DNA of 30,951 nt from a virus. Taxonomy: Duplodnaviria; Heunggongvirae; Uroviricota; Caudoviricetes. Shown in pieces: positions 24,987 to 25,818 of the stretch (positions are counted from its first letter, which is position 1; each line of letters opens with the position of its first letter). Location of the stretch: IMG/VR virus record IMGVR_UViG_2778261530_000010. One strand, written 5' to 3'. The notes beneath the pieces were generated by a model. That model did not search any database, had not been told where the DNA came from, and saw only the letters and a program-made list of their open reading frames with translations. A program made the translations under genes and the position numbers.

Positions 24987-25083
24987 CCAGACACAAAAAA
25001 GAAACCAAAGTATCAAAAATCACTTGCCACACCTTGATACCTTAGTTACCATAAAACAAAGTTCGTAACTGAGGTATCATCTC

Positions 25084-25818
25084 ATGATCAATAAAGCTAC
25101 AACTCTTGACTGTCTTGAAGAACTGAAAAACCTCGGCAGTCTCATTACACTAATAGCCAAAGCAACGCCAGATGCTACGCTCTCTGGCGATATCGAGTCA
25201 TGCGCAGGACTGGCATGGGATATGACAAATAGCATATCCAGAAAGCTATCGTCAGCAATGCTTTTACAGAACAAAAATTCTGCAATCAACAACCGTCTTC
25301 GCACCCAACGCGAATCCTGCGGCTTAACAACCGCCGAACTCGCCAGGCTGCTCGCTCTCGATGAAGAAATCATCATCCAGTGGGAAAGCGGAAAGTATGA
25401 ACCAACTATCAGTATGCTTATCCCGCTGGCAAATGTTCTTGGGTGCGAACCGCTCTCCCTGCTGAATGGCGAAAATACCGTCATCCAAAACCCCATACCA
25501 GCAAAAAAGGAAACCATTGGCACACGCATAGAAACCGCCCGTAAAAAACTGGGGCTGACCGAAGCAGACCTGGCACGCATGATTCACACCTACAGCAACC
25601 CTATAAACGACTGGGAGTGCGGTATCTGCGAAGTACCTGCCAATCAGATTGTACCGCTGGCGGATGCGCTTCATTGCGATCCAATGTGGTTGTTAGCCGG
25701 TGAACCTGTTTTCAGGGCTACATCAGATACCATGGAGCAACAACATCACCACGTTGCTCCACAAGCTGGCTGCGAATCTCACGAAGTTCTTCAACTGAAG
25801 AGCCAAACGCCAAAGTGA
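25084..25818 (+). CDS. Tandem double-HTH (XRE-type) DNA-binding protein downstream of cI
   Basis: Two HTH-like segments (LRTQRESCGLTTAELARLLALDEEIIIQWESGK and IETARKKLGLTEADLARMIH); SD GAGGT before the ATG. Confidence 0.6.
   Translation: MINKATTLDCLEELKNLGSLITLIAKATPDATLSGDIESCAGLAWDMTNSISRKLSSAMLLQNKNSAINNRLRTQRESCGLTTAELARLLALDEEIIIQWESGKYEPTISMLIPLANVLGCEPLSLLNGENTVIQNPIPAKKETIGTRIETARKKLGLTEADLARMIHTYSNPINDWECGICEVPANQIVPLADALHCDPMWLLAGEPVFRATSDTMEQQHHHVAPQAGCESHEVLQLKSQTPK

Follow-up and report, generated by a model that had tools for sequence, protein, structure and literature searches.

The 30,951-bp stretch of viral DNA studied here (IMG/VR record IMGVR_UViG_2778261530_000010; 'the window' in the following) is, according to sequence comparison, a prophage of the phiP27 type from E. 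coli, in which the repressor gene cI is followed on the same strand by a gene for a protein of 244 amino acids (aa) with two helix-turn-helix (HTH) units. The region between these two genes, i.e. positions 24987-25083, is very probably this prophage's counterpart of the leftward operator and promoter (OL/PL) of phage lambda, with a conspicuous inverted repeat in this leader representing a pair of predicted repressor sites over the early-left promoter. What carries this reading are the sequences and positions of the sites, their restriction to the flanks of cI, their conservation and the recurrence of this layout with unrelated repressors. In kind, the control region is ordinary and indeed textbook; the gene that it would control is an uncharacterised early regulator. 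The original prediction for this region had located the gene in the position of the lambda rex genes and had taken the repeat as a sign either of co-regulation by the same repressor or of mRNA folding that gates translation.

Three 14-bp sites of the form GATAC-N4-GTATC, each with a good GATAC half and a weaker second half, lie in the 97 bp between cI and the HTH gene. The middle and the downstream site, GATACCTTAGTTAC (25036-25049) and GTAACTGAGGTATC (25065-25078), stand in opposite orientation and thus make up the inverted repeat, and the 12-mer CCAAAGTATCAA, which had been reported to recur in the gap between cI and cro, forms the core that the upstream site has in common with the central cI-cro site. 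This 12-mer is indeed found in exactly two copies in the window (24272-24283 and 25005-25016; about 0.15 matches are expected when up to one mismatch is allowed), with both copies being embedded in a longer match of 18 out of 20 positions (24267-24286 versus 25000-25019). In a repeat search the arms can be extended to 15 nucleotides (nt), i.e. to 25035-25049 and 25065-25079, which are 93% complementary, enclose a loop of 15 nt and differ by a sole mismatch that is a G.U pair in RNA. The repeat is therefore present as described, but it does not end ahead of the Shine-Dalgarno sequence: the GAGG motif (25071-25074) is part of the right arm, and 5 nt separate the end of this arm from the ATG.

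Three further sites of the same type occupy the cI-cro gap, where the counterpart of the site at 24236-24249 in the relative L002 is the perfect palindrome GATACTTAAGTATC, and no comparable cluster exists elsewhere in the 31 kb. The pattern GWWWC-N4-GTATC has five matches in the 30,951 bp versus 0.29 expected, all of them in the cI-cro gap or the leader, and of 13 window matches to GATAC-N4-GTATC with at most two mismatches six fall into the two gaps flanking cI, which represent 0.7% of the window. With these motif counts and the expectation for the 12-mer, a chance origin of the site cluster and the 12-mer is ruled out. The two arms are identical at 13 of 14 positions, and so are the sites at 24268-24281 and 25001-25014, i.e. 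the existence of close copies is a trait of the entire set of sites and not peculiar to the pair of arms.

The leader also contains a sigma-70-like promoter, whose −35 hexamer TTGCCA (25024-25029) and −10 hexamer TACCAT (25047-25052) are interlocked with the middle site: the latter begins 6 nt past the −35, and its final three bases open the −10. The predicted transcriptional start near 25059 falls in the loop of the repeat, which results in a predicted 5' leader of about 25 nt.

The same layout is observed behind other repressors. Homologues of the tandem-HTH gene occur frequently in E. coli prophages and more rarely in Salmonella and Kosakonia. In every locus that was collected from IMG/VR and assemblies, the homologue is located approximately 100-150 bp behind a repressor gene. 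These repressors belong to at least six unrelated types, some being S24-type cI proteins of 218-248 aa and others HTH-only proteins of about 130 aa. A sigma-70-like promoter is present in the leader of each type (found by scan for types A to E and by eye for A3 and F), and in five types, A to E, the leader palindromes use the half-sites found in the cI-cro gap of the same phage, namely GATAC-N4-GTATC in type A (the window and L002), ATCG-N6-CGAT in type B (L066), ATCAA-N7-TTGAT in type C (L067), ATAG-N6-CTAT in type D (L083) and GTTTAG-N6-CTAAAC in type E (L086). Types A, A3 (Kosakonia), B and D even agree exactly in their geometry, in which the −35 is followed after 6 nt by a 14-bp site that extends by 3 nt into the −10. 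The leader cores read TTGCCA CACCTT GATACCTTAGTTAC CAT in type A, TTGACA CAACAA ATCGGTAAACCTAT TAT in type B and TTGCCA TAATTT ATAGCAGGTTCTAT TAT in type D; in types A, A2 and D, 31 nt separate the −10 from the ATG. In a crude matrix of shared 12-mers, type-A leaders have 9-18 in common with the rightward operator (OR) regions of type A and 0-7 with those of other types. Thus, co-regulation by the same repressor finds support in silico, with one family of sites in both gaps flanking cI and the leaders of the other types carrying half-sites of their own. A cI-based search of one genome per species turned up just distant repressors (at most 51% identity), none of them with the HTH gene behind, and therefore added no type-A diversity.

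Within type A, conservation follows the proposed elements. Among 31 distinct leaders, 14% of the columns are variable in the left arm, 7% in the right arm and 0% in the three bases of the −10 that extend beyond the left arm, as compared to 42-78% in the spacers and the loop, and the GTATC half of the upstream site (25001-25014) does not change in any of the 31 variants. The TTG of the −35, the entire −10 and both arms are preserved in all 16 distinct core sequences (two of which are from Salmonella), with variation in the loop and the flanks; in the Salmonella copies, both arms are retained and the loop and spacers are changed. The leader is the same whether it precedes a protein with two HTH units, as in the window, or with one, as in phiP27 (gene L10), and the first two leader sites are still present in a metagenome phage (locus L131) in which the product has no HTH at all. 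In a relative from Kosakonia and in one from a metagenome, the recognition helix of the repressor is the same, and the upstream and middle sites, the promoter and a terminator behind cI are all present.

Several points weigh against this assignment. These Kosakonia and metagenome relatives lack the third site and, with it, the inverted repeat, such that conservation of the repeat in related prophages holds for E. coli and Salmonella but not for the nearest relatives beyond them. Where both arms exist, they and their centres are kept more strictly than the remaining four sites of the respective genomes, a hint that the −10, the Shine-Dalgarno sequence or RNA pairing imposes an additional constraint. 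The match of the promoter is modest (9/12 to the consensus, with the start being predicted). The site pattern was derived from the very regions in which it is counted, and the whole-window count is thus partly circular; the independent control is the comparison across repressor types. Finally, the phiP27 records carry no regulatory annotation at L12-L11-L10, and a literature search for phiP27 operators or the tandem-HTH protein found nothing.

Is the gene behind cI a transcription unit of its own? Behind cI, the type-A lineage of E. coli and Salmonella has no recognisable terminator. The inverted repeat is ruled out as being a terminator itself, since no T-run stands behind the hairpin. Types A3, B, C, E and F as well as locus L131 do have an intrinsic-terminator-like hairpin behind the repressor gene, and therefore the gene downstream appears as a separate unit. 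In lambda, N is the first gene past OL/PL, and the rex genes reside on the cI transcript, ahead of OL/PL. A separate transcription unit with the sites of the resident repressor over its promoter thus corresponds to the N position and not to the rex position. From this arrangement we infer that cI binds to the leader sites, that transcription starts between the two arms and that this start is repressed. In a lysogen, cI (and, early in lytic growth, also Cro) would occupy the leader sites and shut the promoter; DNA damage would lead to self-cleavage of cI, the promoter would fire and the tandem-HTH protein would be the first early-left product to appear.

An alternative is that the repeat operates mainly as an RNA hairpin, which masks the Shine-Dalgarno sequence in all transcripts of the HTH gene until it is opened by a signal, a protein or an RNase. 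Folding of the leader, a check proposed along with the original prediction, does yield a stable 15-bp stem of about −20 kcal/mol (z = −2.87 versus dinucleotide shuffles) that includes the Shine-Dalgarno sequence in its 3' arm, with a probability of 0.00 for the latter to be unpaired in transcripts that hold both arms. In addition, the arms and their centres are kept in E. coli and Salmonella genomes in which the remaining operator-like sites drift, of three observed arm substitutions two preserve pairing as G.U, and the centre of the left arm is altered where the right arm is missing (Kosakonia, L131). However, with the predicted start being in the loop, RNA initiated at the leader promoter would lack the left arm, and in RNAs starting at 25053-25061 just a weak local hairpin of 6 bp remains. 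Of the 15 pairs of the stem, 12 never vary, two become G.U and one is disrupted, without any pair being altered on both sides; covariation among the 16 distinct leader cores speaks neither for nor against the hairpin. Moreover, either arm alone fits the operator pattern, the hairpin is not kept in the nearest relatives beyond E. coli and Salmonella, and an Rfam scan of 23900-26400 returned nothing relevant (one weak small nucleolar RNA match at E = 0.39). A general RNA gate therefore is quite unlikely.

A more restricted role of RNA pairing, added to that of the operators, deserves some more credit. Because a start at about 25059 excludes the left arm, the hairpin would matter solely in RNA that reads through from the cI promoter, and such read-through is plausible because of the lack of a recognisable terminator after cI in this lineage. 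In this RNA the hairpin could hide the ribosome-binding site and leave the gene untranslated in the lysogen. The strict conservation of the arms and the altered left-arm centre weakly favour such an added constraint, but overlap with the −10 and the Shine-Dalgarno sequence could account for part of the arm conservation, and we consider this role as tentative and somewhat doubtful. Of the idea that mRNA structure gates translation there thus remains a possible function in cI read-through RNA, but not in promoter-initiated RNA, which would have no left arm, and not one backed by covariation.

The same read-through also bears on a rex-like role, i.e. that the gene is expressed in the lysogen as a partner of cI and, being transcribed together with cI from the maintenance promoter, serves as a second regulator of immunity or exclusion. 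In lambda, the immunity operon consists of cI, rexA and rexB (for its layout, see PMC9836094). The HTH gene resembles rexA and rexB in being downstream of cI on the same strand, at a distance of just 97 bp, and in this lineage no terminator intervenes that could be recognised. Yet it is located after a promoter with operator-like sites, whereas the rex genes are on the cI transcript, there is no homology, most other types terminate after the repressor gene, and read-through RNA would bury the ribosome-binding site. Searches with Pfam, PHROGs and PADLOC found HTH families only in the protein and no Rex-like or defence domains; PADLOC detected no defence system among the early-left genes either, its matches being generic HTH ones. 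The assignment to the rex position is not supported, for a second immunity or exclusion regulator there is no evidence, and a rex-like role is thus distinctly improbable.

The tandem-HTH protein itself is as it had been described, with its ORF (open reading frame), Pfam and PDB matches and an AlphaFold model all in agreement. It is composed of a helical hairpin (residues 4-62, with helices 4-27 and 35-62 in the model), two five-helix HTH domains (68-130 and 143-207) and a disordered tail (209-244). Pfam assigns HTH_19 (50.9 bits at a cut-off of 30.2, in two stretches) and HTH_3 (50.5 bits at a cut-off of 23), and residues 68-130 and 143-207 match the P22 c2 and 434 repressors in the PDB at E = 3e-6 and fold like them, with a template modelling (TM) score of about 0.9 over 63 residues for each unit. 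A structure search of the PDB matched single HTH domains and provided no analogue of the whole chain. Most likely, the protein binds DNA as an early regulator, with its N-terminal helical hairpin serving for dimerisation. None of the families that it matches points to a function: in the PHROGs collection, phrog_4739 is listed as 'unknown', and for the label 'CII-like regulator' of phrog_4836 no supporting evidence was found.

Across immunity types the HTH units remain almost unchanged. Independently of the N-terminal domain, the C-terminal part comes with a single HTH unit or two, and the tail may be present or missing; phiP27 L10, for instance, has a single hybrid HTH behind an identical leader repeat. 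That the repeat is a binding site for the tandem-HTH protein itself, with its four half-sites of the GATAC/GTAAC type serving a dimer with four HTH domains held together by the likely dimerising hairpin, is very improbable, because the leader sites change with the repressor type whereas the HTH domains are nearly constant, because phiP27 has the identical repeat with a single HTH and locus L131 keeps the first two sites with none, and because the same half-sites occur in the cI-cro region.

A small convergent gene of family phrog_6104 overlaps the last 33 codons of the HTH gene, which specify the part that is disordered in the AlphaFold model, as well as the first codons of the next gene, and it is absent from loci in which the HTH protein has a length of about 215 aa and its gene directly adjoins the next one; the tail may thus be a by-product of the insertion of the phrog_6104 gene. 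In a Salmonella locus (L130, 2501-3262; P0111), the type-A N-terminal domain and leader are kept, the conserved first HTH is disrupted and two different HTH units follow. Evidently, the DNA-binding part is swapped more freely than the N-terminal part.

The N-terminal domain, by comparison, is tied to immunity. Its sequence clusters pair one-to-one with the repressor clusters, with seven pairs and no exceptions among 85 loci, which were drawn from L001-L089, L126 and L127, besides the window, and most of which are close relatives of each other. It follows that the left edge of an exchangeable immunity cassette lies inside the tandem-HTH gene. The right boundary is found inside cro, whose last approximately 25 residues (HPSLARTGEVKGLYVPELRSDRD) are common to the window (23967-24040) and locus L081 (2625-2700), with the N-terminus of cro as well as cI in L081 being unrelated to those of the window; cro also overlaps the next ORF (23711-24004) by 38 nt. 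The linkage between N-terminal domain and repressor may reflect mere recombination at the nearest conserved sequence. Alternatively, the N-terminal domain could specifically bind its cognate cI or Cro. If this were combined with the above, the inverted operators would bind cI on DNA and also lock the ribosome-binding site in cI read-through RNA, and the N-terminal hairpin would interact specifically with the cI or Cro of its own immunity type. As a whole, this combination is unlikely; if true, translation of the first early-left gene would depend on the promoter from which its RNA originates, and the N-terminal hairpin would be a new component of the lysis-lysogeny switch.

Relatives of this domain are few. 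An exhaustive search with the N-terminal 66 aa gave close homologues and two stand-alone small proteins; further matches to long repetitive proteins were treated as spurious. In the slot after a type-A-like cI, locus L131 encodes a stand-alone type-A N-terminal domain of 67 aa without any HTH (3001-3204), directly followed by a stand-alone 63-aa relative (3207-3398) of the C-terminal domain of a 121-aa protein that is encoded downstream of the HTH gene in the window (25947-26312; P0059). The C-terminal approximately 50 aa of this 121-aa protein are related to the N-terminal domain of the type-C HTH protein (L067; 48% identity with E 1e-7 in BLASTP, 97.5% in HHalign), and no relation to the window's own N-terminal domain is detectable. 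These similarities suggest a helical-hairpin module that may be common to early-left proteins. The idea of a SinR/SinI-like pair, in which the N-terminal domain would resemble the downstream 121-aa protein, holds for type C and weakly for type B but fails for type A, and was dropped for the window.

The features around cI are compiled in the table. In general, the minus strand carries cro as well as the replication and late genes, and the plus strand carries cI and then the genes from the HTH gene via excisionase to integrase. The phiP27 counterpart of cI is L11, labelled 'putative lambda repressor' in its record. Downstream of the HTH gene, the early-left genes are arranged in the order 121-aa protein, phrog_340, phrog_1515, membrane protein, SPFH lipoprotein, DUF5406, phrog_285, phrog_3871 and xis. 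All are on the same strand, and no terminator-like site was found on the plus strand between 25800 and 29700; the genes from the HTH gene to int thus constitute one transcription unit.

Table. Regulatory elements and genes around cI and in the early-left region of the window.
Feature	Position	Strand	Basis and remarks
cro-like gene, 83 aa	23967-24218	−	ORF; match to phrog_4749 (1e-47); first early-right gene; slot of phiP27 L12
OR operator-like site GATACTCTGTTATC	24236-24249	.	One mismatch to GATAC-N4-GTATC; over predicted rightward promoter start
PR-like promoter TTGATA-17-TAACAT toward cro	24255-24283	−	Promoter scan, 9/12
OR operator-like site GAATCCAAAGTATC	24268-24281	.	Contains most of 12-mer copy 1
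OR operator-like site GTTACTTTAGTATC	24292-24305	.	Adjoins cI start
cI repressor, 218 aa	24330-24986	+	Pfam HTH_3 (1e-14) and Peptidase_S24 (1e-22; self-cleaving domain)
Upstream leader operator-like site GAAACCAAAGTATC	25001-25014	.	Contains most of 12-mer copy 2
PL-like promoter TTGCCA-17-TACCAT	25024-25052	+	Sigma-70-like; promoter scan, 9/12; predicted start near 25059
Possible RNA hairpin, 15-bp stem, 15-nt loop	25035-25079	+	Would bury Shine-Dalgarno in cI read-through RNA
Middle leader operator-like site GATACCTTAGTTAC (left arm)	25036-25049	.	Fills promoter spacer and first 3 nt of −10
Downstream leader operator-like site GTAACTGAGGTATC (right arm)	25065-25078	.	About +7 to +20; covers GAGG
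Tandem-HTH gene, 244 aa	25084-25818	+	ORF; counterpart phiP27 L10, labelled 'unknown'
Small convergent gene, 82 aa, phrog_6104	25718-25966	−	Overlaps 3' tail of HTH gene; counterpart phiP27 L09
Remaining early-left genes up to xis	25947-29582	+	ORFs, Pfam, PHROGs
Integrase gene at right end of window	29638-30951	+	ORF ending at 30951; counterpart phiP27 L01, site-specific integrase

Two other places in the window attracted attention. Within the early-left operon, 27489-28501 encodes an SPFH/Band_7 lipoprotein (Pfam 6e-31) with weak similarity to HflK/HflC, preceded by a gene for a 62-aa membrane protein (phrog_1130), and without a match to a PADLOC defence model. It is conceivable that this lipoprotein modulates FtsH, and hence the lysis-lysogeny decision, or is involved in exclusion. 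Far from cI, a perfect 16-bp inverted repeat with a loop of 5 nt (TTATAGAAGTCCTTCA / TGAAGGACTTCTATAA; 13660-13696) is located in a gap of approximately 660 bp among minus-strand genes, which is the longest stretch of the late region without an ORF of at least 100 aa.

When compared to lambda OL/PL, the region behind cI shows the same basic plan. It is positioned beside cI, on the side opposite to cro, contains three sites that share the consensus of the three cI-cro sites, with one of them over the −10, and faces early-left genes that end in xis and int, in an element with a self-cleaving S24-type cI. The details differ, however. The predicted sites are 14 bp long (GATAC-N4-GTATC) rather than 17 bp as in lambda, one of them is downstream of the start and over the ribosome-binding site, and the leader comprises about 25 nt, whereas that of lambda has about 220 nt and includes nutL. 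No rex genes are inserted between cI and the operators, and the two three-site clusters (24236-24305 and 25001-25078), which bracket cI, are approximately 770 bp apart and not 2.4 kb as in lambda. If cI forms higher-order complexes, this spacing would correspond to a very short OL-OR loop around the cI gene itself.

A further difference is that the first gene encodes an HTH protein and not N. Nevertheless, the slot is that of N, and the operator-proximal part of the gene switches with the immunity type, which is parallel to the situation in imm21-type regions, which carry their own N. In sequence and fold, the two proteins are unrelated, N being a small arginine-rich, RNA-binding antiterminator and the protein described here consisting of a helical hairpin and two domains of the Cro/cI type. 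Each of these HTH units resembles the P22 c2 and the 434 repressor and Cro (HTH_3, PF01381) in sequence and fold, but here two units are combined in one chain, with a helical hairpin ahead of them and without an S24 domain. Cro/cI-type HTH units are also shared with the tandem-HTH protein Wmk of the Wolbachia prophage WO and with E. coli DicA; with NCBIfam scores below the cut-offs (32.6 versus 300 for Wmk, NF047948, and 81.8 versus 101 for DicA, NF007257), the protein is a member of neither family.

Overall, this analysis amends the map for a prophage family that is widespread in E. coli and Salmonella and to which Shiga toxin (Stx)-converting phages of the phiP27 and the Stx1a/Stx2a types belong. 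The gene after cI would be the first gene to be released upon loss of the repressor rather than a lysogen-expressed analogue of rex, and candidate operator sequences are now at hand for at least five immunity types. The analysis also draws attention to phrog_4739/4836 (phiP27 L10) as an early regulator that awaits characterisation and in which the N-terminal domain moves together with the immunity region. Should this tandem-HTH protein affect the lysis-lysogeny decision or prophage induction, it would have a bearing on the induction of Shiga-toxin phages.

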